Sequence record: PV467749.1
Origin: a phage
Length of the DNA: 64,000 nt
Reading direction: 5' to 3' (one strand)
The notes under the pieces are model-generated. The model saw nothing but the letters and a program-made list of their open reading frames with translations. It was not told the origin of the DNA and made no database searches. Below are positions 1,895-55,775 of this stretch, in pieces. Position 1 is the stretch's first letter; the number at the start of each line of letters is the position of its first letter. The translations under genes and the position numbers were made by a program.

Positions 1895-1939
1895 TATTAA
1901 GCAGGGTGTTCCTGCACAAAATTTGACAAGGAGATTTTT

Positions 1940-3244: not shown

Positions 3245-3261
3245 TAAATTAAAGATAAAAG

Positions 3262-3291
3262 AAAAGGAGAGCTTTTGCTCTCCTTTTTTTA
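3262..3291. terminator. bidirectional intrinsic terminator between convergent genes
   Basis: AAAAGGAGAGC-TTTT-GCTCTCCTTTTTTT; A-run upstream, T-run downstream. Confidence 0.85.
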
Positions 3292-4575: not shown

Positions 4576-4583
4576 TATTTATA
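4576..4583 (-). promoter_or_regulatory. T4-type late promoter TATAAATA
   Basis: Exact TATAAATA on minus strand about 60 nt upstream of ATG at 4517. Confidence 0.6.
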
Positions 4584-12938: not shown

Positions 12939-12970
12939 ATTTTTGTCTCTTTGATAGCGTGTATGTGCGT

Positions 12971-12999
12971 ATTATACATAACCAAAAACATCATGTCAA
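12971..12999 (-). promoter_or_regulatory. consensus sigma70 promoter TTGACA-N17-TATAAT
   Basis: Minus strand cattGACAtgatgtttttggttatgTATAATacg, just downstream of capsid terminator and upstream of endonuclease gene 11841..12938. Confidence 0.65.
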
Positions 13000-13009
13000 T
13001 GTTTTTAAT

Positions 13010-13034
13010 AAAAAAAGGGACTCCGAAGAGTCCC
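13010..13034 (-). terminator. strong intrinsic terminator downstream of major capsid gene
   Basis: GGGACTC-TTCG-GAGTCCC followed by TTTTTTT on minus strand. Confidence 0.85.
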
Positions 13035-13078
13035 TATTGTTTTTAATTTCTTGATTAAATCTTTTAAATCGATTATAA

Positions 13079-14254
13079 TTACATGAAAGTAACGTTTTTG
13101 ATAGCGATTTTGCTGTAGTAGTCAGCAGCGTTACCTAGTGAACTGGTGCTATCGGTCAACTGTACATAGCCATATCTGGTTAGAAAAGTTGTAACGAGTT
13201 CCCCAGTGTTAGGGTCCATTACAGTACCGGAAGCCATTAGTGGGATGTATGGGCAATAGAACACACCAGCATCAGTTTCAGCGTTACCTTTGTAACCAAT
13301 TAGGATATCTTCAACATCACTTGCATAGGTATCAACGAAGATACGCATGGTGCTGTTTAGAGTACCAACAAATTTAACGTTAGTTGGAGCTTCGAAAGTA
13401 CCTTCAGTAGTACGTGCAAAACTAGAAGTAGTTGCAGACTGTAGAATGGTTAGAGCGGTTGGAGAAACAACAGCCCAGTTCGCAGCACCACGTTTGGTAC
13501 GACGAGCAACTTCGTTCGCTTGACGGTTGATTAGGGTAGCTAGAGCAGCGTGCTCGTCACCAACGAAGGTCGCAACACCAGTAACTTTAGATTGGTCATA
13601 AGTTACAGCAGCAGCACCAGGTAGTGCACGTAGACGGCTTAGTAGCTCTTGGTCGATTTCAACGGTAACTTCTTGAGCGATTGCAGCCATTAGTTCAGCT
13701 TCAACGTCAATACCATGTTGGGATTGTGCATCTTGTGCAGATTCAACAGTCCAACGTGCAGATAGACGACGAGATTTCGCTTCAACAGTTTCACGTAGAA
13801 TACGGATGTTAACGCGACGACCCATAGTACCTTCTAGTTGGCTAGTAGGAGCAGCTTGTGGGTTGCTGTTGTCTGCGTTTAGGTCACCAGTATAAGACTT
13901 AGCGATTTTGTATGGAGAAAGCATTTCTTCACCAGCGATAACACCAGGAGCGTTGTCAGCATATTGAACACGTAGGGTGTGGATCTGACCAACTGGGCCA
14001 GTCATTGGCTGAACACCGATGATTTCGTTAGCGATTACGGTTGGCATAACACGACGCATAATTGGTAGAATCACTTTGTTTAGAGTAGCGATGTTACCAG
14101 CGGTGGTTGCACCAGAAGTAGCAGATTCGTTTAGCATTAGTTTACGATGGTTATCAAGTACGGTTTCCATTACGGACTTACGAGTACCTTGTAGACCTTC
14201 AACTAGTTTCTCTTTAACTGCTACCCATTTGGATTCATTTAGTAGTTGTGACAT
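13079..14254 (-). CDS. major capsid protein (T4 gp23-like)
   Basis: IIGVQPMTGPVGQ vs T4 gp23 ICGVQPMNSPTGQ; VEAKSRRL...SAQDAQSQHGIDVEAEL vs IEAKSRQL...LAQDLRAVHGMDADAEL; IGYKGNAETDAGVFYCPY vs VGYKGPNEMDAGIYYAPY; AAGGAGAT RBS, TATAAATA upstream, strong terminator downstream. Confidence 0.92.
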   Translation of the reverse strand: MSQLLNESKWVAVKEKLVEGLQGTRKSVMETVLDNHRKLMLNESATSGATTAGNIATLNKVILPIMRRVMPTVIANEIIGVQPMTGPVGQIHTLRVQYADNAPGVIAGEEMLSPYKIAKSYTGDLNADNSNPQAAPTSQLEGTMGRRVNIRILRETVEAKSRRLSARWTVESAQDAQSQHGIDVEAELMAAIAQEVTVEIDQELLSRLRALPGAAAVTYDQSKVTGVATFVGDEHAALATLINRQANEVARRTKRGAANWAVVSPTALTILQSATTSSFARTTEGTFEAPTNVKFVGTLNSTMRIFVDTYASDVEDILIGYKGNAETDAGVFYCPYIPLMASGTVMDPNTGELVTTFLTRYGYVQLTDSTSSLGNAADYYSKIAIKNVTFM

Positions 14255-14298
14255 TATTATCTCCTTAAAGATGTTATATTCGTTTTTCAGTATGATAT

Positions 14299-14306
14299 TA
14301 TTTATA
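14299..14306 (-). promoter_or_regulatory. T4-type late promoter TATAAATA for major capsid gene
   Basis: ttcagttcTATAAATAatatcatact about 45 nt upstream of ATG at 14254. Confidence 0.7.
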
Positions 14307-14344
14307 GAACTGAAAAATTTGATTATTAAAATGCTTTAAAATGT

Positions 14345-15460: not shown

Positions 15461-15507
15461 TCGTTCTCTCCTTTAAGTACTGAAATATCTGTACTTCAAC
15501 ATACAAA

Positions 15508-15515
15508 TATTTATA
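15508..15515 (-). promoter_or_regulatory. T4-type late promoter TATAAATA for scaffold gene
   Basis: aaaaaTATAAATAtttg about 48 nt upstream of ATG at 15460. Confidence 0.65.
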
Positions 15516-16178: not shown

Positions 16179-16994
16179 TTAGATTTTTGGTTGTGATTTT
16201 GGTAGTGGAGAACGAGATTTAGAAGCGGTATTTTTTGGCTTCGCAACATCTTTCATTTCGCCACGAGCATTTTTACCTAGGTCTTCATCAGTGTGGGACA
16301 TAGCATCTTCGTTTTCAAAATCATAATCTACTTGTTTTTCGGAAGCTTTAGCGAATTTCACTGGAGCAACACCTTGAACTGGAGATTTAGCTTCTGGTGC
16401 AACTGGGGACTTGGTATTAACGCCAGCTTTTTCTTTCTTATCAACCGCAGCAACTTGCTTAAGTTTGAAAGACTCACCAACTTTCTCATCACCGAATTGT
16501 ACATCAGCAAATTCGTCTTCAGATTCTTCACCATCAGCACCAACTTCAACTTCTTCGTCGTCAGAACCTAGGTCAACTTCATCACCACCGATTTCGTCAA
16601 ACATTTGTTGTAGGCCACGGAAAGCATCTTGAATAGATTCCCATTGGTCTTCGGAAGGAACTTCTGCACCAACTTCTGCTTCAGCGTCAACTTCTTCGCC
16701 ATCAGCATCAGCAGAGAATTCAACTTCTTCTTCTGCACTTTCATCTTCTTCACCTAGGGTGTATTCGATTTCAGCATTTAGACCAGCGTCTGGTTGAACA
16801 TCAAAGTCTTCGTCAAGTTTTTCTTCGTCTTTGACTTCAACTTCACATTCTTCTTCGTCCATGCTTTCTTCTAGTTCTTTATTGATTTCTTGAGCTTGCT
16901 CAACAAAGTACTTACGCATTTTTTTATCAGCAACATCTTGTTCGCCGTTTGCAAACGCTTCAATTGCTTCTTGTAGTAGTTTTAAATTCGCCAT
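16179..16994 (-). CDS. highly acidic prohead core protein (gp68-position)
   Basis: D/E-rich low-complexity protein between portal and protease; start chosen at ATG (MANLKLL) with GGAGGA RBS; internal ORFs on other frames are shadows. Confidence 0.65.
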   Translation of the reverse strand: MANLKLLQEAIEAFANGEQDVADKKMRKYFVEQAQEINKELEESMDEEECEVEVKDEEKLDEDFDVQPDAGLNAEIEYTLGEEDESAEEEVEFSADADGEEVDAEAEVGAEVPSEDQWESIQDAFRGLQQMFDEIGGDEVDLGSDDEEVEVGADGEESEDEFADVQFGDEKVGESFKLKQVAAVDKKEKAGVNTKSPVAPEAKSPVQGVAPVKFAKASEKQVDYDFENEDAMSHTDEDLGKNARGEMKDVAKPKNTASKSRSPLPKSQPKI

Positions 16995-17036
16995 TATATC
17001 CTCCATAGATATATTACATTCATATAAAGTATGATA

Positions 17037-17044
17037 TTATTTAG
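17037..17044 (-). promoter_or_regulatory. late-promoter-like box CTAAATAA within conserved 30-nt element
   Basis: aaatttttcagtacTAAATAATATCATACT nearly identical to capsid promoter region; about 45 nt upstream of acidic core protein ATG. Confidence 0.45.
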
Positions 17045-17094
17045 TACTGAAAAATTTCGCCATTTTTAAAAGCTTTAAAAAGTGCGATTTTTGT

Positions 17095-17395: not shown

Positions 17396-19132
17396 TTAAA
17401 AAGAATCGCCTAAATTATTCGGGTTAAAACCTGCACTTCCTTGTTGTTCTTGGTATTCAGCATCGGCACTTTCTAAGTTACCGTCATCATCAATACCCAA
17501 ATCCATACCAGGATCGTTAGGAGCATCTATACCAACAGATTGCAACCCAGCAGCATCTTCTTCACCACTTGACGGAGCGGAACCATCTTGTGGATTTTCT
17601 TGGAGCCACATTTGCTCATTCTTAACAATATCAGCTTTAGAGAAGCCCATTTTTTCAAGAATAGTTTGTTTTGCCATATATGGCAGATCGTTAAGTGGGA
17701 GATAGGTGTTAATTAGTTTAGCATCTAGTTCCGCTTTACGATAAGAAGCCAAGTTAATAGGTGGATTCATAATTACTTCAAAAGATGAAGTACTAATGTT
17801 ATATCCATTTTTAACCATAAAACGTTTAAATTCTGCATCAAATAGTTTTGCAACTAAACGTTGATAACGCATACATTGGTTATTAAAACGTAATTCACTT
17901 GCCATTGCTTGTGTTGCACCATCACCAAATAGTGATACACCACCATCATCTGGACCTTGCGGTAGATATGAAGCTGGGATTTGCAAACCACGAATCAATT
18001 TATTGTTGAAGTAACGCAAGTCATCAATCTGACCTAAGTTATCACCACCAGGAAGTGTTTGTACATCTGAACCACGACCTTCAGAAGTTTGTGGGAAGAA
18101 GTAATCTTCTAGAATACTTAATGGATTATATGCTGCATCCATTAGTGAAGTACTGCCACCTTTATTTGAAGGAATACGTCTTTGGTGAATTTCATTTTTG
18201 AATCGTTCTACGTATGCCATTGCTTGGTGAGTTTGCATATCACCAACGTCGATTTTAAATACACGACGCTCTGGAGCACGTTGAACACGATAGATAATAA
18301 TACTATCTTCAAGTAATTCTTTTTGTTTATAGACTTTGAAAACATCTTCAAGTATACTAGTACCAAAAGGCCAAACTCCATCTTGTCCTGTATTTAGGGT
18401 TAGATGAATTACATGTTCTGCACCAACTGGAATAACATCAAGACGACCGTTAGTACTGAATGGGTCAGCAGAGTTTCCTTGGTTAGTAAAGCCAGATGCA
18501 CCACCTGCTGCTACTGAACCACCGCCACCTAATGTGGTAGGGATTGCACCAGGATATGCAGTTTTGTCAAAACCAACTTGCAAGTTACTAAACACTTTAT
18601 CTTTAAGATTCAAAGATACGTCACGGATATAATAAATTACAGGGGTTTTTCCGGTTGCTTCGTTAACGAATACTTGTTCAACGTTTTTTGGGCTTACCCA
18701 GTACCAGTCAAATGTTTCTGGGTCACGAATGAAGAATTGGTCACCGTATTTTAATAGGCCACGTACAATTTCATACATTCTGGTTTTAAAATCATTTTGT
18801 TCTGTCCATGCATCCAAACGGTCTTCAATAGTAGTTACTTCTGTATCACCAATATCATCTTTATATTTGATTTTATATGGAAGACCAAAATCTTCAGTAC
18901 TTTGTGTACAGAAGTCAGCAATGATATTAAGTGCTGTTCTAATTTCAGGATCTTGGTCCATCTGTTCATACTGACTATAACGTTCAGTACGGTTAGCTAA
19001 ACCATTGTATACTACTGGAAGATAGGAAGCGAAATTGGTTTTCGTTCCTGTTGATTTGTTGCTATTACTGGACTGATTAGGGACGACCGATAACTTCGAT
19101 CTCCCCATTGTCATATGTCGTTTCCAACTCAT
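17396..19132 (-). CDS. portal protein (T4 gp20-like)
   Basis: [21 protein letters not shown] vs T4 gp20 [39 protein letters not shown] vs DTLPGADNTGNMEDIRWF. Confidence 0.92.
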   Translation of the reverse strand: [578 protein letters not shown]

Positions 19133-23858: not shown

Positions 23859-24546
23859 TATTTTTATAGATAAAGCAAATATAAAACATAACAACAAATA
23901 TGAATATACATTAGTTGAGTATGTAAATAATTACACTAAAGTTAAAATTATATGTAAGAAACATGGTATGTTTTCACAAACTCCAAATCACCATTTAAAA
24001 GGAAGTGGATGTAATGAATGTTACTTAGAAAGCAAGCACGATACTAAAGATGACTTCATAAAAAAATCCATGAAAGTTCATGGTGAATTATATGATTACT
24101 CAAATGTGATATATAAATCTTCAAAGAAAAAAGTTGAAATTATATGCAATAAACATGGTTCTTTTTATCAGAGGCCACATGAACATATATCAGGTAAAGG
24201 TTGTTCAGAATGTGGAGTTGGTGGTTACAAGAGAAGTAAACCAGGTCGTTTATATGTATATGAAGTTTTACAAGACGACAAAACTATAGCATACAAATAC
24301 GGAATAACTAATGGTACTATTAATAATAGAAAATATTACCATGAGTATCACTCTAACTTAAAATTTAATTGTGTTTATGAACTATATGATGAAGATGGTA
24401 ATGTTCCATATAATATAGAAAAAGCAATAAAAGCTGGCATGAAAAGTGTTTTTTTATCAAAAACTATTTTAGAAGTTGGGTATACCGAAACGATAGAACC
24501 GTCTTTATATGAAGATTTGATTAATATAATAAAAAAAGGGAGCTAA
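23842..24546 (+). CDS. homing-endonuclease-like protein: two zinc-ribbon-like modules + GIY-YIG-like (T5orf172) domain
   Basis: Repeats YEYTLVEYVNNYTKVKIICKKHGMFSQTPNHHLKGSGCNEC and YDYSNVIYKSSKKKVEIICNKHGSFYQRPHEHISGKGCSEC; C-terminal PGRLYVYEV...KYGIT. Confidence 0.8.
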   Translation: MNTKNDIFIDKANIKHNNKYEYTLVEYVNNYTKVKIICKKHGMFSQTPNHHLKGSGCNECYLESKHDTKDDFIKKSMKVHGELYDYSNVIYKSSKKKVEIICNKHGSFYQRPHEHISGKGCSECGVGGYKRSKPGRLYVYEVLQDDKTIAYKYGITNGTINNRKYYHEYHSNLKFNCVYELYDEDGNVPYNIEKAIKAGMKSVFLSKTILEVGYTETIEPSLYEDLINIIKKGS

Positions 24547-24562
24547 GGCTCCCTTTCCTTTT
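24531..24562. terminator. bidirectional terminator between convergent endonuclease and gp46-like genes
   Basis: A7-GGGAGC-TAAG-GCTCCC-TTTCCTTTT; stop codon of plus gene lies in the loop. Confidence 0.75.
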
Positions 24563-26724: not shown

Positions 26725-27756
26725 TTATAGTGATCTGTAAATTTGGATTAGAAGATTTTTATCGAACATAGGTGAATCAATTTCCATGATTTGTTGTAAC
26801 ACAATCTCATCAACTGACTCAGTACTTTCAAAGCTTTCACCATCTTCAATAAGTTCTTTGATACTTTGCTTGCTAGTAACAACGTTAAACTCACGAATGT
26901 TATAAAGTTTAGTAAAAGTATCACGAATAAAACTAATCTCATCAGTAGTGATAGCAATATCAACTTGAACCTTTGAAATAGTATTGTCTTGAAGATAATA
27001 ACTTGGATCTGTTAATAGTTCTGAAAGTGTAAATGTTCTATATTTTGGTGCTTCTGACCAAGAATGGAAAGTTGGTTCTTTACCATGTTCTAAAATCATC
27101 ACACCTCTTGCATCATCCCATGTATCAGAAAAGTTATGTGGGAAACAGTTACCTGTGTAAATTACACGAGTTCCTTTGGATGTTGTTTTTGCTTGTCTCT
27201 TGTGGAAATGCCCACTAAAAACATACTCACAACCACCAAAAGAACCTTCAGTCTCTTTACCATGATCTGGCATCTCAACCATTTTATTGAGCAAGTAGCC
27301 AGGTAACTCTAAGTGACCAAAAACATACTTACTTTTAAGTTGAGGTAGAACTTTGTATTCATCTTCAATCATAAATGGAATGAAAGTACAATCATCAAAT
27401 GTTGTGATTTCATTAATGAACTCGATGTTCTCATAAACTTGTGCCATATTAATACTAGTAATGTCACGTTTATTTTTATGATACATGTCATGGTTCCCAA
27501 CTAAGAAGTAAACCTTATCAAAGTTGTCATTTAGTAATTGTAGAATTTGTAAACCATAGTTTAATGTTTGAATGTTAATATTACTGCGGTTATGGAAGTA
27601 ATCTCCCATAAACACGCATACAGTAATACCATTTTTCTTAGCAAGTTCAATCATAAACTTGATGAAGTTCAAACAATCTTCGTTGTGCTGCTTGCTGTTA
27701 TTCTTTAATCCTAAATGAATATCAGTAAATGTAATTGCTTTATCAAATAGAGCCAT
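26725..27756 (-). CDS. recombination/repair nuclease subunit, SbcD/Mre11-like phosphoesterase (T4 gp47-like)
   Basis: N-terminal FTDIHLG and GDYFH, GNHD phosphoesterase motifs; start moved from TTG to ATG (MALFDK) with AAAGGAAA RBS. Confidence 0.9.
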   Translation of the reverse strand: MALFDKAITFTDIHLGLKNNSKQHNEDCLNFIKFMIELAKKNGITVCVFMGDYFHNRSNINIQTLNYGLQILQLLNDNFDKVYFLVGNHDMYHKNKRDITSINMAQVYENIEFINEITTFDDCTFIPFMIEDEYKVLPQLKSKYVFGHLELPGYLLNKMVEMPDHGKETEGSFGGCEYVFSGHFHKRQAKTTSKGTRVIYTGNCFPHNFSDTWDDARGVMILEHGKEPTFHSWSEAPKYRTFTLSELLTDPSYYLQDNTISKVQVDIAITTDEISFIRDTFTKLYNIREFNVVTSKQSIKELIEDGESFESTESVDEIVLQQIMEIDSPMFDKNLLIQIYRSL

Positions 27757-28582
27757 CTTCGTTTTTCCTTTCAATCATGTTCATTTCAATTTCGATTTGA
27801 CGAGTGTGTGATGGTGTAAAACCATGCATCTCAAGTAAATCGTCTCGGATGTTACGAACATTTTTCTCACTATTAAGAATCGAACGGAAACTATTGTTAA
27901 CGAACGAAGTATAGTAAGAGAAAGGATTCAACTGTACTGCTGGTTTATCTTTTTTGTAAAGAATACTCTCTTTAAAGAGAAGTGCGTTTTTAACTAATTG
28001 TATTCTGGCATCACCCATCATTTCATCCAAATATGTATAGTTTCTATAGTTGGATTTGTGTGAGATTTCCTCTGCCAGTTTAATGAACATTTTACCTAGT
28101 TCATTAGTGATTTTACCATGAACAGTGCTGAATTCTCCGTCTTCAAGATCACCTTTCCAGTGAGAACGAACGACTTCGTACAGAATACCTTCTTCATCTA
28201 CAATGTAATGTTTGAATGGTTCAAAATTAACTCTTGTATCTGCTGGGATATGTTCATCGGTAATTACACGAATAACCACCTCATCGATAGGTACATCAGT
28301 CAGTACTAAATTGTGCTCATCTGCGTATTCCTTCGCTTTCTTCGCACTCATACCTTCTTTTTCACGAATTGCATCAAGCATTTCATTGTTGAGACGTTTA
28401 ATACGTGCTGCTTTAGCTTTATCTAAAAGTTCTGCTGTGATTTCGGATTCATCAAAAACGATATAATCGTACATACTGTAGCACTTATCAAGTAACCAGC
28501 AATATGAGATTTTACTTTTTTGTATCTCACGAAGTAAATCAGCATTGTTAAGATACTTTTTACGCTTCGGCCTATTTGTCAT
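27743..28582 (-). CDS. late-transcription sigma factor (T4 gp55-like) with large internal insertion
   Basis: KYLNNADLLREIQKSK vs T4 gp55 KYNYVNNKELLQAIIDWK; NPFSYYTSFVNNSFRSILNSEKN vs [23 protein letters not shown]; start at ATG (MTNRPKRKK) with GGAGAG RBS. Confidence 0.8.
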   Translation of the reverse strand: MTNRPKRKKYLNNADLLREIQKSKISYCWLLDKCYSMYDYIVFDESEITAELLDKAKAARIKRLNNEMLDAIREKEGMSAKKAKEYADEHNLVLTDVPIDEVVIRVITDEHIPADTRVNFEPFKHYIVDEEGILYEVVRSHWKGDLEDGEFSTVHGKITNELGKMFIKLAEEISHKSNYRNYTYLDEMMGDARIQLVKNALLFKESILYKKDKPAVQLNPFSYYTSFVNNSFRSILNSEKNVRNIRDDLLEMHGFTPSHTRQIEIEMNMIERKNEDGSI

Positions 28583-32039: not shown

Positions 32040-34703
32040 ATGGCAGATACAAGTAAGAAATATGCCCAACAACAGTTGGGTCGTTTTGACCCTTCGTATC
32101 CACAACTAGCAACCGTGATGGATAACCGTGACCCAACTAAATCCGGTAAGCTAAAAGTGTGGATTCAAGGTTCACAAAGTGATAAAAATTCAAAAGAGTC
32201 ATGGATTGAAGCATCATACATGTCTCCATTCGCTGGTAAAACTCCAGGGATACCAAGTGCTGATGCTTATGGTCAATATCCAAAGGGATATGGTTTTTGG
32301 GCGGTTCCACCTGATGTCGGATGTACTGTTGTTGTTATATTTGCACAAGCAAGAACATTCCAAGCGTATTGGATTGGTTGTGTTTATGACCAACGTATGA
32401 ATACGATGGTTCCTGGGATGGCTACTGAAATAAGCAATTATGCAGGTACTGATATGCCATTACCCGTAACTGATTATGACCGTAATACAATTTCTACCAG
32501 TACTCAAGACAAATATGCAAACGTTCCAATTATTGCAGGTCTGAAAAAACAAAACTTACTTTATGATGAGGAAGCGGGTGTTGCTAACCGTAGTAGTACT
32601 CGCCAGACCACCAGTACTGTTTATGGTCTTTCCTCACCTCGTGGTAACAGTTTTATTATTGATGATGGTTACACAGAAGAAGAATTAACAGCACCTACAT
32701 GGGATCAAGATCCAGATGGTTATCAGGATACCCAATTCAATAACCCAGTGAACGATACTCGTGTTGGTTCTCGTAAAAATGAAGGCGTTGTAATTAAAAC
32801 ACGTAGTGGTGCACAGTTGTTGTTATCTGAAGCCTCTGGTGATGTTCTTTTAATTAACCGTGATGGTACTGCACGTATTAAATTCACTGGTGAAGGTGAT
32901 ATTGAAATGCACTGTGATAAGAATATTAACATTCGTGCAGGTCAAGATATTAACATGGTTGCTGGACGCTCATATAATATTGAAAGTGGAGCAGACTTCA
33001 ATGCTCGTGTTGGTGCAAACACTAAACTAGATTTGGTTGGTGCATTGGATGCTAAAGTTGGTGGTCAGGTTGTTATTAACGCTGGAGCAGATTTACGTTT
33101 AGTAACAGCAGCTTCATTACGTATGCAAAGTGGTAGCAGTACTGATATAACTGCTGGTTCTAATGCGTCAATCTCTGCTGCTACCAGTGCTAATCTTATT
33201 GGTTCTTCATCAGCTATTATTAGTGGTGGTGGTCAAACCCTTACTGTTAACAGTGGTGGTAATAGTGGTACTGCTGAATTTAATGCACCAAACTTCCGCA
33301 CCCCATCTGCTGGCTTGAATGATCATATACATGATATATCGGCTTGGGTTGATGCAGAGAATCACGGCAGTACTGTTGAACCTCCACGTCAAGGTGGTGG
33401 TAGTGGGAATAGTGAATCCCCAGTTCAACCTGAACCTGCTAATGATGTAGCTCCAACTTTAGCTCCAGTACAGGACACTGAAGCAATTCAATATGTAAAT
33501 TATACAACAGAAACAGAACAAGTTCAAACACAAGATTTAATGACTTCTGATCCTAGTATGACTGGTTATAGCATTACTTATGAAGGTCTTCATATGTTCA
33601 TGCCGTGTAGTGGAACCATTCGCCAATACGGTTATTGGGGGAAAGGTGTCCCGACTAGTGGTGGTGGTAAAGCTGATAGAAGTGGCTGGGAAATACAGTG
33701 CAAGGGTGATGTTGTAGCTCCAGATGGCGGTGTAGTTGTTATCACTAATGGTGCTTTATTGGTTCAACATAAGTCTGGATATAAATCTGTATTTTATAAT
33801 ATTCAATCAGATTTGCTCAATAAAGACGTTGTTCAAAAAGGTCAAGTTATCGGTAAAGCTAATGGTGTTATTCAATTTGAAATAAGAGTCACCTCTGCCA
33901 ACGTACTAGGATTTAGTGGTTCTGTTGACCCTGGATTATTCTATGCATCCCAGACTGGTACAGGTTCTGAAGCGGGAAATAAAACATTAATTGCAGGACA
34001 AGCAACGAACCAAGCAGCACCGAAAGCTGTTGTTCAACCTTCTGTTGATAGTGATGAATTAGTTGTAACAACTAAAATTAAAACTATCGGTACTGGGTAT
34101 TCTCAACGTGGTTCTCGTCATGTCCCTCGTCGTAGAAGAACACAACGTTCAGGTGGTACTCCAGCACCTACTGCACAAGAATCATACAATGTGGGTAATG
34201 TTGATAAGACTGCAATTGATTGGAAAGTTGTTCCGGGTGATTCACAATTTATTTCTGAATTGAAAGAATATGAAGGAACAATGGCGTATCAACAAGCTAA
34301 AGGATATTACCGCAATGGTAAATTTTGGAGATATTTGGATAGTCGTGGATTCCCAACTATTGGTTACGGTCACTTGATTGTTGGTGGTGAAAACTTCTCT
34401 GGTGGGATTACCGAACAGGAAGCCAATGATATGTTGGTGCGTGATAGTAGTAAGGCTATATATGACGCAAAATCCATTTACGCTTCTTATAAGATGAAAA
34501 CACCTTACATGGCACAACAAGTTCTATGTCAAATGGTATTCCAGATGGGTAAAGGTGGTGTAATGAAATTTAAGTCAATGCTATCTGAAATGGCTAAAGG
34601 TAACTACAAGCAAGCTGCTGCTCAAATTCGAAATTCAGCTTGGTATCGTCAAACTACACGCCGTGCTGAATTAATGGCACGTAGATTAGAGGCATGTCAA
34701 TAA
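32040..34703 (+). CDS. baseplate hub/puncturing protein (T4 gp5-like) with C-terminal GH24 lysozyme domain
   Basis: N-terminal OB-like region (KLKVWIQG...GCTVVVIFA) resembles gp5 N-domain; beta-helix-like Ser/Gly/Ala repeats; C-terminal CQMVFQMGKGGVMKF...SAWYRQTTRRAELM matches T4 lysozyme INMVFQMGETGVAGF...SRWYNQTPNRAKRV. Confidence 0.9.
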   Translation: MADTSKKYAQQQLGRFDPSYPQLATVMDNRDPTKSGKLKVWIQGSQSDKNSKESWIEASYMSPFAGKTPGIPSADAYGQYPKGYGFWAVPPDVGCTVVVIFAQARTFQAYWIGCVYDQRMNTMVPGMATEISNYAGTDMPLPVTDYDRNTISTSTQDKYANVPIIAGLKKQNLLYDEEAGVANRSSTRQTTSTVYGLSSPRGNSFIIDDGYTEEELTAPTWDQDPDGYQDTQFNNPVNDTRVGSRKNEGVVIKTRSGAQLLLSEASGDVLLINRDGTARIKFTGEGDIEMHCDKNINIRAGQDINMVAGRSYNIESGADFNARVGANTKLDLVGALDAKVGGQVVINAGADLRLVTAASLRMQSGSSTDITAGSNASISAATSANLIGSSSAIISGGGQTLTVNSGGNSGTAEFNAPNFRTPSAGLNDHIHDISAWVDAENHGSTVEPPRQGGGSGNSESPVQPEPANDVAPTLAPVQDTEAIQYVNYTTETEQVQTQDLMTSDPSMTGYSITYEGLHMFMPCSGTIRQYGYWGKGVPTSGGGKADRSGWEIQCKGDVVAPDGGVVVITNGALLVQHKSGYKSVFYNIQSDLLNKDVVQKGQVIGKANGVIQFEIRVTSANVLGFSGSVDPGLFYASQTGTGSEAGNKTLIAGQATNQAAPKAVVQPSVDSDELVVTTKIKTIGTGYSQRGSRHVPRRRRTQRSGGTPAPTAQESYNVGNVDKTAIDWKVVPGDSQFISELKEYEGTMAYQQAKGYYRNGKFWRYLDSRGFPTIGYGHLIVGGENFSGGITEQEANDMLVRDSSKAIYDAKSIYASYKMKTPYMAQQVLCQMVFQMGKGGVMKFKSMLSEMAKGNYKQAAAQIRNSAWYRQTTRRAELMARRLEACQ

Positions 34704-34716
34704 ATATTTCAGTACT

Positions 34717-34724
34717 ATAAATAA
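34717..34724 (+). promoter_or_regulatory. T4-type late promoter TATAAATA for endolysin
   Basis: atttcagtacTATAAATAataatgagg about 17 nt upstream of ATG 34741. Confidence 0.7.
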
Positions 34725-34740
34725 TAATGAGGAAATCTTT

Positions 34741-35712: not shown

Positions 35713-36477
35713 ATGAAATATGCAACAACCAGATCAACAAAATACAAATTTGTAACCAACGCCATTAGAGTGCATGGTATGCGTTATGATTATAGTATGG
35801 TTAAATATCATAATGCTAAAACAAAGGTGTGGATCGGATGTGAGAAGCATGGGTTTTTCCTACAAACACCAAATGACCATACATGTGGCAAAGGATGCAT
35901 GGAATGCTCGGTTGAGTATAATGCGAATCGTCAGAAAAGTCCACAGAACTTTATAAATTTTCTTAATAAGGCTAATTTAAAGTTTAGAAATAAATTTGAT
36001 TATAGCACAGTAGAATATGTTAATAATAAAACTCACATATCCATAATATGCCCAACACATGGGTCTTTTTTACAAAGACCTGATAATCATTTGTCAAGTA
36101 AGTATGGTTGTGAGAAATGTATGATTGAATCAACGCAATCAAAAGCAGTAACTGATATTGAAAAAATGATATCTTTCACTAATTATGTTAAAGAAAAGCG
36201 TTTTGATGATTGTAGAAACATATTAACTTTGCCATTTGATTTTTATATTGAAGATTTAAACTTGTGTATTGAATATGATGGTGAACAACACTTTCGATGT
36301 TCTGAACATTGGGGTGGTGACAAATCGCTAAAACAAACTCAACACAATGATAAAATTAAAAACACGTACTGTGCTGACCATGATATTAACTTACTTCGTA
36401 TCAAATACGATGAAGATCATATCATCGTACTAAAAAAGTACTTTTATGATAATTTTAACATAATATTAAAGGATTAA
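35713..36477 (+). CDS. homing-endonuclease-like protein: two zinc-ribbon-like modules + C-terminal PD-(D/E)xK (DUF559/Vsr-like) nuclease domain
   Basis: Repeats YDYSMVKYHNAKTKVWIGCEKHGFFLQTPNDHTCGKGCMEC and FDYSTVEYVNNKTHISIICPTHGSFLQRPDNHLSSKYGCEKC; C-terminal LCIEYDGEQHF...LLRIKYDE. Confidence 0.8.
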   Translation: MKYATTRSTKYKFVTNAIRVHGMRYDYSMVKYHNAKTKVWIGCEKHGFFLQTPNDHTCGKGCMECSVEYNANRQKSPQNFINFLNKANLKFRNKFDYSTVEYVNNKTHISIICPTHGSFLQRPDNHLSSKYGCEKCMIESTQSKAVTDIEKMISFTNYVKEKRFDDCRNILTLPFDFYIEDLNLCIEYDGEQHFRCSEHWGGDKSLKQTQHNDKIKNTYCADHDINLLRIKYDEDHIIVLKKYFYDNFNIILKD

Positions 36478-43000: not shown

Positions 43001-46000
43001 GCAGCACTGGTACTATTTTGTCCGGTGAACGCCGTGGTCAATATGACAAATACAAGCGTTTCGGTGTACAGCCATTTAAAATCACTAAGACTGGCGAGAA
43101 AACCAGTACTGGTATTGATATTTGTGAAGTTGAGTATATTGCACCTGAAGTTTTAGGTCTTGTTAGTGGTAATTTAGATCATCGTGCAGAACCGTGGGCT
43201 TATGGTGACATGGGTGACATGGAATTCACTTACATGAACACTGCGATGTTTGCTTATGACCAAATGCTTCTTCTATACAAAGCAAAACCAGCACAGTTTG
43301 CAAACTATTACTGGGATACCCGTAATGATAACCTTAAACCAGTTTATACTGATGGTTCACAGTTCCTTTATGGTGAAACCCGTAAGCGTCTAAACTTTGA
43401 CAGTGCTACATTAGTACATGGTGAGAAAAATACCCGTACTATCGGTTATCAAATGTTTGTTAGTGACTATTTGATGTATCAGAATAAGAACATTACCACC
43501 AAATACGGTGACGTTGTTCGTTCTTCTTATGTCAATGTCGCTCACAAAATTGGTGGCTTTACTAAAGCAGACCAATTGACATTCACTGCTAAATCTTTCG
43601 GTTTGATTTCACAAGAAAACCAAACTATCGGTCTAGTTCGTTCCAATAACATTCGCGATGAGCAAATGAGTGCAGTAAAAATTACTTGGAATGGTAGTGC
43701 ATATCAAATTGATGGTTATGATTTAGTTGGTGCTAAATTTAAATATAAAATTCCAGTTAAAAATGGAAGAAAAGTAACTCTTAAATTGGAAGACAGAACT
43801 GTTGTTCATTACAATGAATGGAAATCTGAAGGTACATTAGAATATGGTAAAATATTCAATACATACCAAGAAGTTTATACTTTCATTTGTGGATATGGTG
43901 AATATCTAAAAGAACATGGCTGGATTTTTGAAGATGTAAATGATAGTGGTGCTCAACAAGACTGGACAACTATTGCTAAAGACTTTGTTATTTGGAGTCA
44001 GAATAATTTAAGTACTGGTGAGTTCATCTCCTGTACTCCAAGTGCAGCTAATGCTAAATTTGGTGCAGATTTTGGTTCAGTTCAATCTGTTACACAGAAC
44101 AGTGGTGGTGTTTGGTCACTACTCGATGATGAAAACCAAGGTATCCGTCAATATGAAATCGAAACTTCGCGTATCGGTAACGTATTCACAGTGAGAACTA
44201 CATCTGAATCACAAAAACGTATGGCGTTGATTCGTTTGAGCCTAAGTTCATATGAACACGCAGTTGTTTTTGATGATAAAACTATCTTTGGTGATTACAT
44301 TTACCAACCAACTTATGGTGCTATTCAAGAATTGATTAAAATGTATGGTTACATTACTGGGGCATGGACTGGTCGCCTACAAGCACCTGGTTTCATTATC
44401 CTAGAAGCAGGAACTTTACCATCATTTGAAAAATTAGTAACTGATTTTGAATTATATTATAATAGTGAAACTCCTGTGAGTGATGTTCAGCTTCAAGAGT
44501 TATCAAATCACTTGATTGGCTATCAAACTCGTGATTATCTACAACGTATGATTAGTAGTGATGTTAGTCGTGTTGATTTCTATAAAGGATTCATTCATGA
44601 CAAAGGTACTAACCAAGTAATGGAAAAAGTACTACGCGTTTCTAAATCTTACGACACTGATGAATATAAAGCACTACAGGAATGGGCATTTAAGATTGGC
44701 ACTTATGGTAATATCAATGGTAAGAAAAATCTACAATTTAAACTAATCAATGACCAATTTAAACAACAACCACAGATGGTTTCGTTTGATGTTAATGCTA
44801 CATCAAATGGTACTGGTAATGGTATTGTTTATTACGGTGAACAAGGGGTTGACTCACGCTGGATTACTCGTCCAAATGGTAAGTTTTCATTCCCAATGCG
44901 TAGTGGAAGAAGTGAGAATATCCAACTTCCAGACATTGGCCCAGTAACACTAGATGAAATTTCATACGTTACTAAAGATTTCAGTACTGCATATAATGAT
45001 CGTATCAATTATATGAATAACAGTGGTGAAATACCAGATTCTGTATGGATGTTTAAAGATGGTAATGATTTGTGGAATATTTTCGAACTAGTAGACACTG
45101 AAGTTGAGATGCTCTCTATCGTTCCAATTGAAAATACCGATGTATATGCAGAACAATTCTGTAAAGTAACTCTAAGTGATGATATCCCACTAAATGATGG
45201 TGATTATTATTACTTTGTTGATGAAACTAACTTTATGCCAGATACATTGACTATAGAAAGTCAATATTATACTGCGGGTAATGACCCTAGAGTTATGGTA
45301 GTTCCGTTTGACACTTCAATAACTATTGACTTCACTGATCCTGATACTCGCCCACGCTTGTATCGTTATGTTTCACGATTCAGTACTGAAGAGATGCGTC
45401 AGGAATACATTGACAGAAAATATAGTTTTAAAGCTCCACAAAGTACTTTGTTTGACCGCCCAACCACATATGATGAGCGTACTAACATTACTGCGTTGTA
45501 CCTAAACGTGTTTGACCCAATCAACGGTGTTATTCCTGGTGCAGCGATGCAGAACGTTACCTACACATCTCCAGTTGACCCAGCACAATACAACAGCAAT
45601 GGTGAATTGATTCAAGCATGGGGTGCTGATAAAGTTGGTCAGGTTTGGTGGAACACCAGCACTGCTTTCTACTTAGATTACACTCGTGCAATCTATGATG
45701 CTGATGGTAATGTGGATGTTGATGCAACAAATGAATATAAACGTTATAACTGGGGCAGATTGCTACCGCACAGTACTGTTGATGTTCTTGAATGGGTATG
45801 TTCGCCAGTGGAACCATATAACTGGGACAAATACTGTAAAGACGTTGCTAACAAAAATAAAAACAATACTATGTACCTACCAAGCGGAACCGCATTGGAA
45901 GATAATTATAGTACGTTCTTAGAATATGATAGCACAACTGATACTTATGTTACAAAATACTATTTCTGGGTTCGTGATACAATCTATGTACCACCATTGC

Positions 46001-49996: not shown

Positions 49997-50030
49997 AAAA
50001 AGGAGAGCATTTGCTCTCCTTTTCTTTTTT
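49997..50030. terminator. bidirectional terminator between giant ORF and ClpA gene
   Basis: AAAAAGGAGAGC-ATTT-GCTCTCCTTTTCTTTTTT; near-identical stem to terminator at 3262. Confidence 0.8.
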
Positions 50031-52317
50031 ACGCAATAACTTTTTCTACTGCTTTAGTTCGTTTAGGTTTGATAGCCAATTTACCATCAATCACATCAAA
50101 CGTTACGTTACCACCATTAACCAGAGAACCACACAACATCTCTTTAGCTAGTGGAACACGGATGTTTTGCTCAATAGTGCGTTTCATTGGACGTGCACCC
50201 ATCCCAACTTTAACACCATTTGTTGCCAACCACTCACGTGCCGCTTTGGTTAGTGAAACTTTAACTTTGCGGTCTTTGATTTGTTCATTCAAACTTCCCA
50301 TGAACTTATCAATGATGCTGTCAATCGCTTCGCTGCTTAGGTCTTTGAATGTCACAATACTATCGATGCGGTTGATGAATTCAGGTGGCAAGAATGCTTT
50401 AATCGCTTTATCTTGTGCTGTATCACTACCGCTCATCCCAATACTACGCTTGGTTGAATCTGCTGCACCAAGGTTAGTTGTCATAATAACAGTTACGTTA
50501 TTGAAGTAAACAGTTTTACCTTGTGAACCAGTCAAACGTCCTTCGTCCAGAACCTGTAGGAAGGTTAGTAGTACTTTACGATCAGCTTTTTCGATTTCAT
50601 CAAGCAACAGTACTGCATTCGGGAACTGCTCAATCTTGTCGAGTAGCAGACCGTTACCGGAATCGTGACCAACATAGCCTGGAGGTGAACCAATCAGTTT
50701 AGCAACAGTATGTTCCTGTGAAAACTCGGACATATCGAAACGAATCAGTTCAGAGCCAGTTGCATCAGCCAGTGCTTTGGTAATTTCAGTTTTACCAGTA
50801 CCAGATGGCCCAACAAACATGAATGCACCTTGAACACTTGATTTATCACGCAGACCAGCACGAGCTACCATCACGTTATCAACCAGTTTCTGTACTGCTT
50901 CTTCTTGACCGTATACACGAGAACGTAGTGCATCTGGTAGATTACGCATACGCTCACTTTCAGTGCAAGCAACCACGTTAATATCTAGGTTTGCGATACC
51001 TGCAACAACTTCTTGAATCAGTGCAACAGTGATGATGTTATCATCAGTTTCACGAGAACGTACTTTCGCTGCCGCCGCATCCATTAGGTCGATTGCTTTG
51101 TCAGGGAAGTGTTTGTTCTTCAGGAACTTATCACTTAGTGTAATAACTGCATCCATTGCTTCAGTACTGAACTCTACGTTATGGAAAGTTTCATAAGTAG
51201 ATTTCAAACCATTCACAATCGCACGGGTTTCATCAATTGTTGGCTCAACTACATCAATTTTCATGAAACGGCGAGTTAGTGCACTATCTTTTTCGATGTT
51301 TTTACGATATTCATCGTAAGTTGTTGCACCGATTACACGAATCTCACCACGAGATAGTGCAGGTTTGAGCATGTTACTCATATCCATAGAACCGTTGCTT
51401 GCTGAACCAGCACCAACCATAATATGGATTTCATCGATGAACACAATAGTGTTTTCACGTTTCTTCAGTTCTTTGAGTAGGTTATCGATACGTTCTTCGA
51501 ACTCACCACGGTACTTAGTACCAGCAGTCAGTGCACCTACGTTCAGAGACAGAATTTCAACATCTTTAAGATGCTCTGGTACTTCACCATCAGCGATTGC
51601 CTGTGCTAGACCATCAATGATTTGAGTTTTACCAACACCAGCTTCACCAGTCAGGATGGCATTCTTCTTAGTCTTACGGGCCAGAGTTTCAATCAGTGCA
51701 GAAAGCTCTTTCTGGCGACCAATCATTGGGTCAAGTTTACCTTCTTTTGCAAGTGCGGTTAGGTTAGTGGTGTAATCTTCTAAACCTTTTTGTTTGGACG
51801 ATGGTTGCTGTTGTGCCACTTTTTTCTCCCCAGTTGGCTCATCACTAATGCTTTGAAGGTTGATTCCGTTGTCGATTGCTTCTACGTGCTTCTGTAGAGT
51901 TCGTGCTGCTTCAGTACAAGTGATACCCTCTTCACGCAATGCTGCTTCTAGTGCAGTATTTGGGAAGGACAAACACTCAAACAGTACAAAATAAGCATCA
52001 ATTGAGAAATCATCACGTTTAAGTTGCTCAATTACTGATTTCTTAGAAAGTTCCTGAACTACACGGTTCACGAGAAGTGATGTGCGGTTCGCTTCATCAC
52101 CATCAGCACTTTTAGGTGCATGTGGGAATGTTGTATTCTTCAGATATGCAATCAAACGACTGTGTAGGTTGTCTGCATCGATGTTCATATCTTCAAATAC
52201 TGCTTTGATGCTATCGATTGTCAGTACTGTAGCACTTAGATGGTCAATAGTCAAGAATGTATGACCCAGAGAAGTTGCCAGTTCGTCGCTTTTTTTGAAT
52301 AATTGGGTAAGATTCAT
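50029..52317 (-). CDS. clpA: ClpA-family AAA+ unfoldase (two ATPase domains plus N-domain)
   Basis: Walker A GEAGVGKT and GPSGTGKT; SIGM loop at the position of the ClpA IGL ClpP-docking loop; C-terminal MGARPMKRTIEQNIRVPLAKEMLCGSLVNGG matches E. coli ClpA; start at ATG (MNLTQLF) with AGGAGA RBS; consensus sigma70 promoter upstream. Confidence 0.9.
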   Translation of the reverse strand: MNLTQLFKKSDELATSLGHTFLTIDHLSATVLTIDSIKAVFEDMNIDADNLHSRLIAYLKNTTFPHAPKSADGDEANRTSLLVNRVVQELSKKSVIEQLKRDDFSIDAYFVLFECLSFPNTALEAALREEGITCTEAARTLQKHVEAIDNGINLQSISDEPTGEKKVAQQQPSSKQKGLEDYTTNLTALAKEGKLDPMIGRQKELSALIETLARKTKKNAILTGEAGVGKTQIIDGLAQAIADGEVPEHLKDVEILSLNVGALTAGTKYRGEFEERIDNLLKELKKRENTIVFIDEIHIMVGAGSASNGSMDMSNMLKPALSRGEIRVIGATTYDEYRKNIEKDSALTRRFMKIDVVEPTIDETRAIVNGLKSTYETFHNVEFSTEAMDAVITLSDKFLKNKHFPDKAIDLMDAAAAKVRSRETDDNIITVALIQEVVAGIANLDINVVACTESERMRNLPDALRSRVYGQEEAVQKLVDNVMVARAGLRDKSSVQGAFMFVGPSGTGKTEITKALADATGSELIRFDMSEFSQEHTVAKLIGSPPGYVGHDSGNGLLLDKIEQFPNAVLLLDEIEKADRKVLLTFLQVLDEGRLTGSQGKTVYFNNVTVIMTTNLGAADSTKRSIGMSGSDTAQDKAIKAFLPPEFINRIDSIVTFKDLSSEAIDSIIDKFMGSLNEQIKDRKVKVSLTKAAREWLATNGVKVGMGARPMKRTIEQNIRVPLAKEMLCGSLVNGGNVTFDVIDGKLAIKPKRTKAVEKVIA

Positions 52318-55741: not shown

Positions 55742-55775
55742 AAAAAAGGAGCCATTGGCTCCTTTTTTCTTTTTA
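55742..55775. terminator. bidirectional terminator between NUDIX gene and minus-strand tail cluster
   Basis: AAAAAAAGGAGCC-ATTG-GCTCCTTTTTTCTTTTT. Confidence 0.8.

Follow-up and report, generated by a model that had tools for sequence, protein, structure and literature searches.

A conserved inverted repeat around the late promoter box of the capsid gene in an Asteriusvirus-type jumbo coliphage

The late promoters of phage T4 consist of the sequence TATAAATA at position -10, which is read by RNA polymerase (RNAP) carrying gp55, a protein of about 185 amino acids (aa), together with gp33 and the clamp gp45. To our knowledge, an inverted repeat bracketing the capsid promoter has not been described for T4. 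Phage promoters of another type, the hairpin promoters of the N4 virion RNAP, possess stems of 5-7 bp and loops of 3 nucleotides (nt) and are used by a phage single-subunit polymerase. Furthermore, over-represented genomic words such as Chi, KOPS and DNA uptake sequences are known to have a function at the level of the DNA. In the RaK2-like jumbo phages CBB and GAP32, a late motif (A/C)TAAATA has already been predicted before structural genes (35 sites in CBB), and the authors found no homologues of gp33 or gp45 in CBB (PMC5259590). Since the late-promoter motif has already been predicted for this clade, its detection in a further member is routine. Here, we describe the late promoters in a stretch of 64,000 nt of phage DNA (record PV467749.1; referred to as the window, meaning the whole stretch analysed), with a focus on the promoter of the major capsid protein gene. 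As far as sequence comparison can tell, the new feature is a co-varying inverted repeat, which is specific to the capsid promoter and holds the late box in its loop. This repeat makes it testable how gp55-type promoters are opened in phages such as the relative CBB, for which gp33 and gp45 homologues have not been reported.

The 6 kb around the capsid promoter are 98.8% identical to Escherichia phage vB_Ec-M-J (BLAST) and 90-99% identical to other Asteriusvirus jumbo phages (121Q, PBECO4, phAPEC6, fEgEco12); judged by sequence, the window stems from an Asteriusvirus-type (121Q/PBECO4, RaK2-like) jumbo coliphage. Its orientation is the reverse of that of the vB_Ec-M-J record, and it spans the cluster of head, tail and baseplate genes. 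The gene for the gp23-like major capsid protein, assigned by similarity to relatives and their annotation, occupies positions 13079-14254 on the minus strand, and its promoter reads, in gene orientation, TTTTTCAGT-TC-TATAAATA-ATATCAT-ACTGAAAAA. The late box TATAAATA (14299-14306, minus strand; core ATAAATA at 14299-14305) is kept in all 12 relatives examined. It is bracketed by an inverted repeat of 8-9 bp, the left arm of which (TTTTTCAGT, 14309-14317, minus strand) pairs with the right arm (ACTGAAAAA, 14283-14291, minus strand); the latter begins 8 nt past the box, a register shared by all relatives. The left arm corresponds to the element that a sequence-only reading of this DNA had proposed as an upstream promoter element. 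Between box and right arm lies ATATCAT (14292-14298, minus strand), the probable initiation region, in which the A at 14293 is position +6; a start in this region is suggested by the +6 A and by the sequence CATAC.

Both arms of the repeat have been kept in at least six lineages. They read TTTTTCAG(T)/(A)CTGAAAAA in Asteriusvirus, 7t3, fENko-Kae01, EJP2, Hallingskeid and RaK2, TTTTCTG(T)/(A)CAGAAAA in GAP32, CBB, BF and XbC2 (with TTTTCTGT as left arm in GAP32, CBB and BF) and TTATTGT/ACAAAAAA in XaC1. Two positions are changed on both sides: CAGT/ACTG is replaced by CTGT/ACAG in GAP32, CBB, BF and XbC2, and a C:G pair is replaced by T:A in XaC1. The spacer between left arm and box differs (G, C, TCT, AAG, GTG or ACTG) while the arms stay, and the box thus lies in a loop of 15-18 nt. 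In the register-adjusted alignment, 93.7% of the cells of the nine pairs are paired, a percentage that is inflated because the register of the left arm was set by hand to maximise pairing. Sliding the partner by one to three columns reduced pairing to 46-70% and left no covariation, and the observed covariation score was reached by 4 of 500 shuffles. The DNA is predicted to fold with -5.7 kcal/mol (z -3.2; one of 200 shuffles was as good) on either strand, and the stem also forms as DNA in GAP32, RaK2 and XaC1. Folding as RNA yields the identical stem (-7.0 kcal/mol, z -2.9). Wherever the stem departs from Watson-Crick pairing, the sense strand has G-T and never A-C, which mildly favours folding of the sense strand. 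No intrinsic terminator is predicted at 14283-14317, where the stem has two G:C pairs and is followed by AAAAACG. An inverted repeat with compensatory changes, as it characterises hairpin or cruciform promoters, is thus present in the hand-set register, but the 3-nt loop and the phage single-subunit polymerase of N4-type hairpin promoters are not; no virion RNAP was seen among the annotated regions examined, which are part of the genome. The Vibrio relative has no such capsid inverted repeat, and PA5oct lacks a capsid promoter altogether.

A scan for further TTCAG-N12-24-CTGAA brackets returned the capsid site as the sole promoter case. A second bracketed promoter, in which CCCAGAT and ATCAGGG surround the box at 1824, is not conserved in 121Q and was treated as a chance occurrence. 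Likewise, a long-range helix between UUUUAAAG and the region of the capsid Shine-Dalgarno sequence, suggested by an RNA fold of the whole spacer, was dismissed, as its upstream partner is missing by eye in 7t3 and GAP32.

The late boxes as such are not more frequent than expected: the window holds five exact copies of TATAAATA (4576-, 14299-, 15508-, 28671+ and 34716+; 7.5 expected) and 19 copies of ATAAATA (28 expected). What sets them apart is their placement. In the window, 18 of the 19 ATAAATA copies are intergenic and face a gene start, leaving a single copy in about 60 kb of coding DNA, and 50 kb of the early region of vB_Ec-M-J contain one copy on both strands together, where about 39 are expected. 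The base preceding ATAAATA is variable in the window (T5, A5, G4-5, C4), and CTAAATA or GTAAATA boxes are found in four further spacers, among them 16170-, 62361+ and 52388+. The five exact copies lie before the capsid, scaffold, zinc-ribbon/GroES, baseplate and endolysin (lysozyme) genes, just as the sequence-only reading had it; the sequences it quoted are all in place, those at the capsid and the acidic virion protein genes on the minus strand, and so are its variants GATAAATA and CATAAATA. Its view that the boxes are late promoters and that relaxed (N)ATAAATA and CTAAATA variants are in use is borne out by this placement, by the purging of the box from coding and early DNA, by the variant boxes in further spacers and by a gp55-family sigma factor encoded in the window. 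The relaxed variants are real, but were previously in print as predictions (PMC5259590). The box of the scaffold gene (TATAAATA, 15508-15515, minus strand) is representative of the remaining late boxes, which the motif scan placed at 1824, 1887, 21447, 23336, 28672, 35678, 39981 and 58068 on the plus strand and at 4576, 11110, 11457, 16170 (CTAAATA), 17387, 21376 and 58033 on the minus strand.

For a wider comparison, 80 candidate late promoters, defined by an ATAAATA with a Shine-Dalgarno sequence and then a start codon downstream, were drawn from six lineages, namely the window, 7t3, EJP2, GAP32, Serratia phage BF, RaK2 and a second vB_Ec-M-J region. Position +6 after the box is an A in 71% of them, and CATAC after the box is kept in the capsid and acidic-protein promoters. 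The candidates have a single -10-type box and neither a -35 nor an upstream element; the core ATAAATA is invariant by selection, and the flanks are only T-rich upstream. The working consensus derived from these sequences is ATAAATA, five variable bases and an A, with no -35 and no general upstream element. Together with the placement before late genes and the counter-selection elsewhere, this identifies the (T/N)ATAAATA boxes, as far as sequence goes, as ordinary T4-type late promoters, which would be read by host RNAP carrying the phage gp55-family sigma factor. This factor is encoded at 27743-28582 on the minus strand and was assigned by PHROG profiles (279 aa; phrog_12791, E 9e-153; late sigma phrog_234, E 1e-16, residues 128-262); its orthologues carry the late-sigma annotation in relatives. 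It has an N-terminal extension of about 125 aa, and Pfam and PDB sequence searches gave no match to the protein, these first ~125 residues included. At the structural gene at 1940, a hairpin GCAGG-gtgtt-CCTGC (1901-1915, plus strand) begins 8 nt after the proximal ATAAATA (1887) and its stem is maintained in relatives by compensatory changes, reading GCAGGT/ACCTGC in GAP32 and GTAAG/CTTAC in RaK2. The mRNA probably carries this stem-loop at its 5' end, in support of transcription starting about 6-7 nt past the box.

Two further arrangements of late boxes were observed. The tape-measure-like and baseplate-hub genes have two boxes on opposite strands, 21376(-) and 21447(+), 70 nt apart; in 7t3, EJP2, GAP32 and RaK2 they face each other within 20-40 nt (ATAAATA-N12-25-TATTTAT; excerpt positions 12969-12996, 12973-12999, 13020-13058 and 13008-13033 in the relatives). 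At the scaffold box, relatives possess an inverted repeat that starts only 2 nt downstream (CTGTAC-atcaaga-GTACAG in GAP32, excerpt position ~18906-18930), and in the window the scaffold box is followed at 15470-15500 (minus strand) by TGTA...TACA plus TTTCAGTACT directly before the Shine-Dalgarno sequence.

The sequence-only reading had further noted a block of about 30 nt, almost identical at three genes, with TTTCAGT(A/T)C upstream of the box as a possible phage-specific enhancer or the mark of a strong-promoter subclass. The three blocks are AAATTTTTCAGTTCTATAAATAATATCATACTGAAAAA at the capsid gene (minus strand, 14283-14320), AAATTTTTCAGTACTAAATAATATCATACTTT at the gene for an acidic virion protein (minus strand, 17029-17058; here the box is CTAAATA at 17038-17044) and ATATTTCAGTACTATAAATAATAATGAGG at the lysozyme gene (plus strand, 34704-34732). 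The similarity is real: a repeat search of the window aligned the capsid and lysozyme blocks over 25 nt with 92% identity, and the capsid and acidic-protein blocks share 12 plus 16 identical nt (AAATTTTTCAGT and TAAATAATATCATACT) flanking an indel of 2 nt; the lysozyme block lacks the downstream ATATCATACT. The 11-mer TTTCAGTWCTA has four exact copies in the window, three of them at these promoters. In whole genomes, a BLAST search with 43 nt of the capsid block found three places per genome in the closest relatives and two in 121Q-type phages, so that a subclass defined by the TTTCAGT(A/T)C block comprises, by sequence, three members at most. The downstream half also occurs outside this phage, as judged from the 18 nt TCTATAAATAATATCATA common to the capsid promoter core and the gene 22 late promoter of RB43, a true T4-like phage (positions 1505-1522 of the gene 21/22 junction excerpt).

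The idea of an enhancer or a strong-promoter subclass is not supported by comparison. Within 20 nt upstream of the 80 candidate boxes no position is conserved beyond T-richness, and GTAC occurs within 14 nt upstream in 4 of the 80, which is about the background rate. At the three window sites, 0-2 nt separate the upstream piece from the box, and among capsid orthologues this distance is 1-4 nt. The piece is truly conserved at the capsid promoter, where it co-varies with its downstream partner, but not at the orthologues of the acidic-protein and lysozyme promoters. Variable gap and covariation fit a stem arm rather than a polymerase contact at fixed distance. Finally, CAGTAC is about 5-fold over-represented in both orientations (173 copies against 32 expected on both strands), mostly in coding DNA, an outcome that the sequence-only reading had itself named as refuting its idea; only 3 of 86 plus-strand CAGTAC and 7 of 87 GTACTG are intergenic.

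The two other sites have histories of their own. The acidic virion structural protein gene (16179-16994, minus strand) matches phrog_15696, a virion structural protein, from residue 5 of its longest open reading frame; the true start is likely, by sequence, the ATG at 16994 behind GGAGG. Orthologue comparison resolves its block (17029-17058, minus strand) into CTAAATA (17038-17044), AGTACT (17043-17048) and the T-tract of a terminator. A terminator-like hairpin at ~17057-17087 (minus strand), between a gene of 75 aa and the acidic-protein promoter, has a stem whose sequence differs per genus while its complementarity is kept, and its T-tract supplies the AAATTTTT of the block. In other genera, the promoter reads TATAAATAATGACATAC(T/C) behind a terminator hairpin, and CAGTAC is absent (7t3, EJP2, GAP32, CBB, BF, XbC2, XaC1). 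CAGTAC-TAAATAATATCATACT is found at this gene in Asteriusvirus only and equals the capsid version minus two bases, and therefore the resemblance likely reflects copying from promoter to promoter, which lie 2.7 kb apart, or convergence. The gene for phage lysozyme (34741-35229, plus strand; PF00959, E 4e-9) is preceded by a box P1 (ATAAATA, 34700-34706, plus strand), which overlaps the stop codon of the upstream gene and is conserved across the clade, and by TTTCAGTAC (AGTACT at 34711-34716) and a second box P2 (TATAAATA, 34716-34723), together at 34707-34723 on the plus strand by orthologue comparison. P2 is only 17 nt from the ATG of the lysozyme gene and, together with TTTCAGTAC, confined to Asteriusvirus; it is missing in EJP2, GAP32 and BF, and in 121Q the CAGTAC is lost, the site reading TTTTAGCAC. 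By this comparison, the lysozyme CAGTAC is an unconserved AGTACT in the leader of P1, where P1 transcripts would begin. The similarity of the three blocks is thus read as composite, with CAGT(A/T)C of a different origin at each site: the parts would be (a) a box with the strong initiation region ATAAATAATATCATA, also present at the RB43 late promoter, (b) a T-tract stemming from the terminator or AT-rich spacer in front of it and (c) CAGT(A/T)C itself. That a CAGTAC can be found beside a box is explained by the high frequency of AGTACT.

This frequency is striking throughout the window, in which (C)AGTACT(G) is the most over-represented word (e.g. at 45379-45390 and 51160-51171). AGTACT is the top hexamer (132 vs 21.7 expected), CAGTACTG is the top octamer (30 vs 0.7 expected), and TTCAGTACTGAA-like palindromes occur 42 times at no more than two mismatches (5 expected). 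Codon usage or Ser-Thr content as the cause is ruled out by shuffling of synonymous codons within genes (117 vs 30.7, z 17.5) and by enrichment in all three frames. Conversion of a very-short-patch-like kind was rejected, since one-mismatch neighbours of AGTACT are not depleted. A methyltransferase as reader of the word was set aside rather than rejected: the enzyme is annotated as a C5-cytosine methylase, and AGTACT lacks a CpG. CpG methylation has been reported by the authors of the RaK2 study, and DNA of fEgEco12 was cut normally by ten enzymes. The base preferred at -1 is C (45%), and the sites are spaced more evenly than a Poisson process would give (CV 0.82; variance/mean 0.45 per 4 kb). 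They are also kept more often than the average hexamer, with 66% vs 43% against 121Q and 35% vs 18% against RaK2. The excess is shared by 7t3, EJP2, GAP32, CBB, BF, XbC2 and RaK2, i.e. all enterobacterial RaK2-like genera sampled; in PA5oct there are 0 copies in 41 kb (14 expected), Vibrio phage 2.275.O is neutral, and a 50-kb sample of E. coli K-12 has 3 copies (11.6 expected), corresponding to ~0.06/kb as compared with ~2-7/kb in the phage. The density is ~7/kb in the direct terminal repeat of vB_Ec-M-J (1-21525). The early promoters of sigma70 type located there read AAAAAGTACTTGCAA-N9-AGTACTGTATAAT, and both of their hexamers adjoin an AGTACT; among the TTGCAA-N16-18-TATAAT promoters of the repeat, AGTACT abuts the -35 in 13 of 14 and the -10 in 12-15. 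Sixteen copies, many as TTCAGTACTGAA, lie in the 1.76-kb non-coding left end of vB_Ec-M-J. In GAP32, CBB and BF, the capsid arms read CTGT/ACAG, yet the genome word is still CAGTACTG and not CTGTACAG, and TGTACA is not enriched; arms and word are therefore separate phenomena. The phage literature yielded nothing relevant on AGTACT, CAGTACTG or the early-promoter strings.

Taken together, we see a little better than an even chance that the late boxes are T4-type promoters with no general upstream element and that the capsid box lies in a conserved stem-loop, which aids promoter opening. From the computed boxes and their placement, conservation and covariation we infer a start site, a hairpin in vivo and an effect on promoter strength. 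The capsid arms would form a stem on the sense (non-template) strand, or else the supercoiled, AT-rich DNA would extrude them as a small cruciform. Such pairing might lower the cost of opening at what is presumably the busiest late promoter of the phage, and it might present the box to the sigma factor in single-stranded form. Besides the hand-set register, several points weigh against this reading. RNAalifold found no structure in the unedited MAFFT alignment of the capsid upstream regions, because the left arms were misaligned there and had to be re-registered by hand. With a short, AT-rich stem and a long loop, spontaneous extrusion is energetically marginal, and the covariation amounts to two events in seven distinct sequences. 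Symmetric covariation of half-sites would be equally expected from a dimeric DNA-binding protein, and no mapped late transcription start was found in the literature for the clade. Moreover, three exact copies of the 11-mer at late promoters exceed what the density of AGTACT alone predicts, so that the acidic-protein and lysozyme sites may have a shared function or result from recent copying.

Several other explanations were weighed. TTTCAGT(A/T)C might be an upstream recognition element, UP-like or of the extended -10 type, which marks a subclass of strong promoters and is contacted by the late transcription machinery, for instance by the N-terminal extension of the gp55-like sigma factor. The fact that three of the four exact 11-mers abut late boxes of genes for abundant virion or lysis proteins speaks for this, as do the ~125 additional sigma residues, which have no assigned role, and the AGTACT copies abutting both hexamers of the early promoters in the terminal repeat. 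We nevertheless regard it as quite improbable, as the block occupies only three places per genome or two in 121Q-type phages, is missing where other genera have the orthologous promoters, has already disappeared from the lysozyme site of 121Q, varies in its spacing to the box, is accompanied by no conserved upstream position in the 80 promoters and contains a word that is ~5-fold over-represented throughout coding DNA in both orientations. Alternatively, the capsid repeat could be an operator: a phage regulator binding there as a dimer would cover the late box and set the timing or raise the level of capsid expression, with the genome-wide (C)AGTACT(G) representing the two half-sites joined with no spacer. 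The box lies at the centre of the dyad, both half-sites change in a symmetric manner from genus to genus, CAGT|ACTG is what both arm ends give when joined, TTCAGTACTGAA-like palindromes are frequent (42 hits), and the AGTACT cluster in the non-coding left genome end would suit such a protein. Half-sites that are symmetric and co-varying but separated by 15-18 nt would, if rigid, be rotated by more than 100 degrees relative to each other; in addition, arms and word are uncoupled in GAP32, CBB and BF, and a candidate protein was not identified, which makes the operator unlikely. Variable spacing and a loop of variable length (15-18 nt) argue against a fixed polymerase contact as well as against rigid dimer half-sites, but are harmless for a stem-loop.

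A stem-loop could, however, also act as RNA. The scaffold gene, the immediate upstream neighbour, has a box of its own (15508), and no intrinsic terminator is predicted to separate it from the capsid gene; read-through transcripts might carry here, between the two cistrons, an element for RNA processing or stability with no part in promoter function. The stem predicted for RNA, the wobble appositions, which are G-U on the sense strand only, and the presence of other intergenic hairpins with compensatory changes in the cluster are in line with this. But the stem is weak, transcripts begun at the capsid promoter would hold the right arm only, and, were stem and promoter unrelated, it would be a coincidence that every genus has precisely the promoter box in the loop; a role as RNA element alone thus seems doubtful to us. 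There remains the view that nothing beyond the box is functional and that arms and three-site similarity arose by chance and common descent in AT-rich intergenic DNA. The sequences are indeed short and AT-rich, the covariation events are only two, and the unconserved bracket at 1824 illustrates that such repeats arise by chance. This view is very unlikely given that the arms are kept in every lineage examined while spacer and intergenic flanks diverge, that pairing drops and covariation vanishes in the slid controls, that only 4 of 500 shuffles reach the observed covariation score, and that a single one of 200 shuffles folds as well.

The excess of AGTACT in the enterobacterial members of the clade is the more novel observation. 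Other palindromes are purged from the window and from the enterobacterial relatives: GCGC is absent (71 expected), and at least 14 six-base palindromes are at zero, among them GGTACC, CGTACG, AGCGCT, AGGCCT, CAGCTG, CCATGG, CTGCAG, GAGCTC and CTCGAG. This pattern is consistent with largely unmodified DNA under restriction pressure and may explain why, according to the RaK2 authors, few enzymes cut RaK2 DNA. A lineage that strips palindromes yet keeps AGTACT at 6- to 20-fold excess in every frame points to a function at the DNA level, for instance in self-marking, priming or packaging or as the site of a global binding protein. It is tempting to speculate that the enterobacterial RaK2-like jumbo phages use (C)AGTACT(G) as a "self" word, which would be under positive selection and recognised by a putative phage factor, a proposal that we offer tentatively and consider improbable. 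If it held, CAGTAC would be the local trace of a genome-wide recognition system and not a promoter element, and the capsid stem-loop promoter would be part of a mode of late transcription that does without the T4 activators gp33 and gp45. Irrespective of its function, AGTACT could serve as a compact sequence signature of the clade.

The window contains other repeats. A coding repeat of 84 nt with a Cys/His-rich motif and 64-71% identity is present at 23938-24021, 24130-24213 and 35824-35907 (plus strand), twice in a gene of 234 aa after endonuclease VII and once in a gene of 254 aa after the baseplate wedge genes. Near the right end (62925-63874) lie two direct repeats, one 167 nt and one 215 nt long, each with copies that are 510 nt apart and 73-74% identical; they are probably duplicated small genes or domains. 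Several convergent gene ends share near-identical bidirectional terminator hairpins of the form AAAAGGAGAGC-nnnn-GCTCTCCTTTT, which the repeat search placed at 3257-3288, 49997-50028, 55742-55774 and 24527-24556.

Compared with known systems, the promoters resemble those of T4 in their lone, A/T-rich conserved box with no -35, in its position before virion genes and in the gp55-family sigma factor, and the 18 nt identical to the RB43 gene 22 late promoter are a further T4-type trait. They differ from T4 in that the first T of the box is not conserved, the core being ATAAATA with CTAAATA tolerated in this phage, and in that the sigma factor of 279 aa is about 95 aa longer than T4 gp55 (~185 aa). 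The late motif predicted for CBB and GAP32, phages of the same clade, is likewise (A/C)TAAATA, A/T-rich downstream and located before structural genes, but that work describes 14-nt motifs only and includes no upstream element, capsid repeat or AGTACT bias (PMC5259590, Table S7). With the N4 hairpin promoters, the capsid promoter shares an inverted repeat in which pairing rather than sequence is kept, and the proposed role, single-stranded promoter bases in supercoiled DNA, would be the same; in contrast to N4, the loop measures 15-18 nt, host RNAP with a phage sigma factor is the presumed enzyme and the repeat is found at one promoter only, so that N4 serves as a working analogy and does not imply membership. 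AGTACT, in turn, differs from Chi, KOPS and DNA uptake sequences in being palindromic and hence devoid of orientation, in having no known reader protein and in standing out in a palindrome-purging phage, but like them it is far above expectation after codon control, rather evenly spread and conserved above background.

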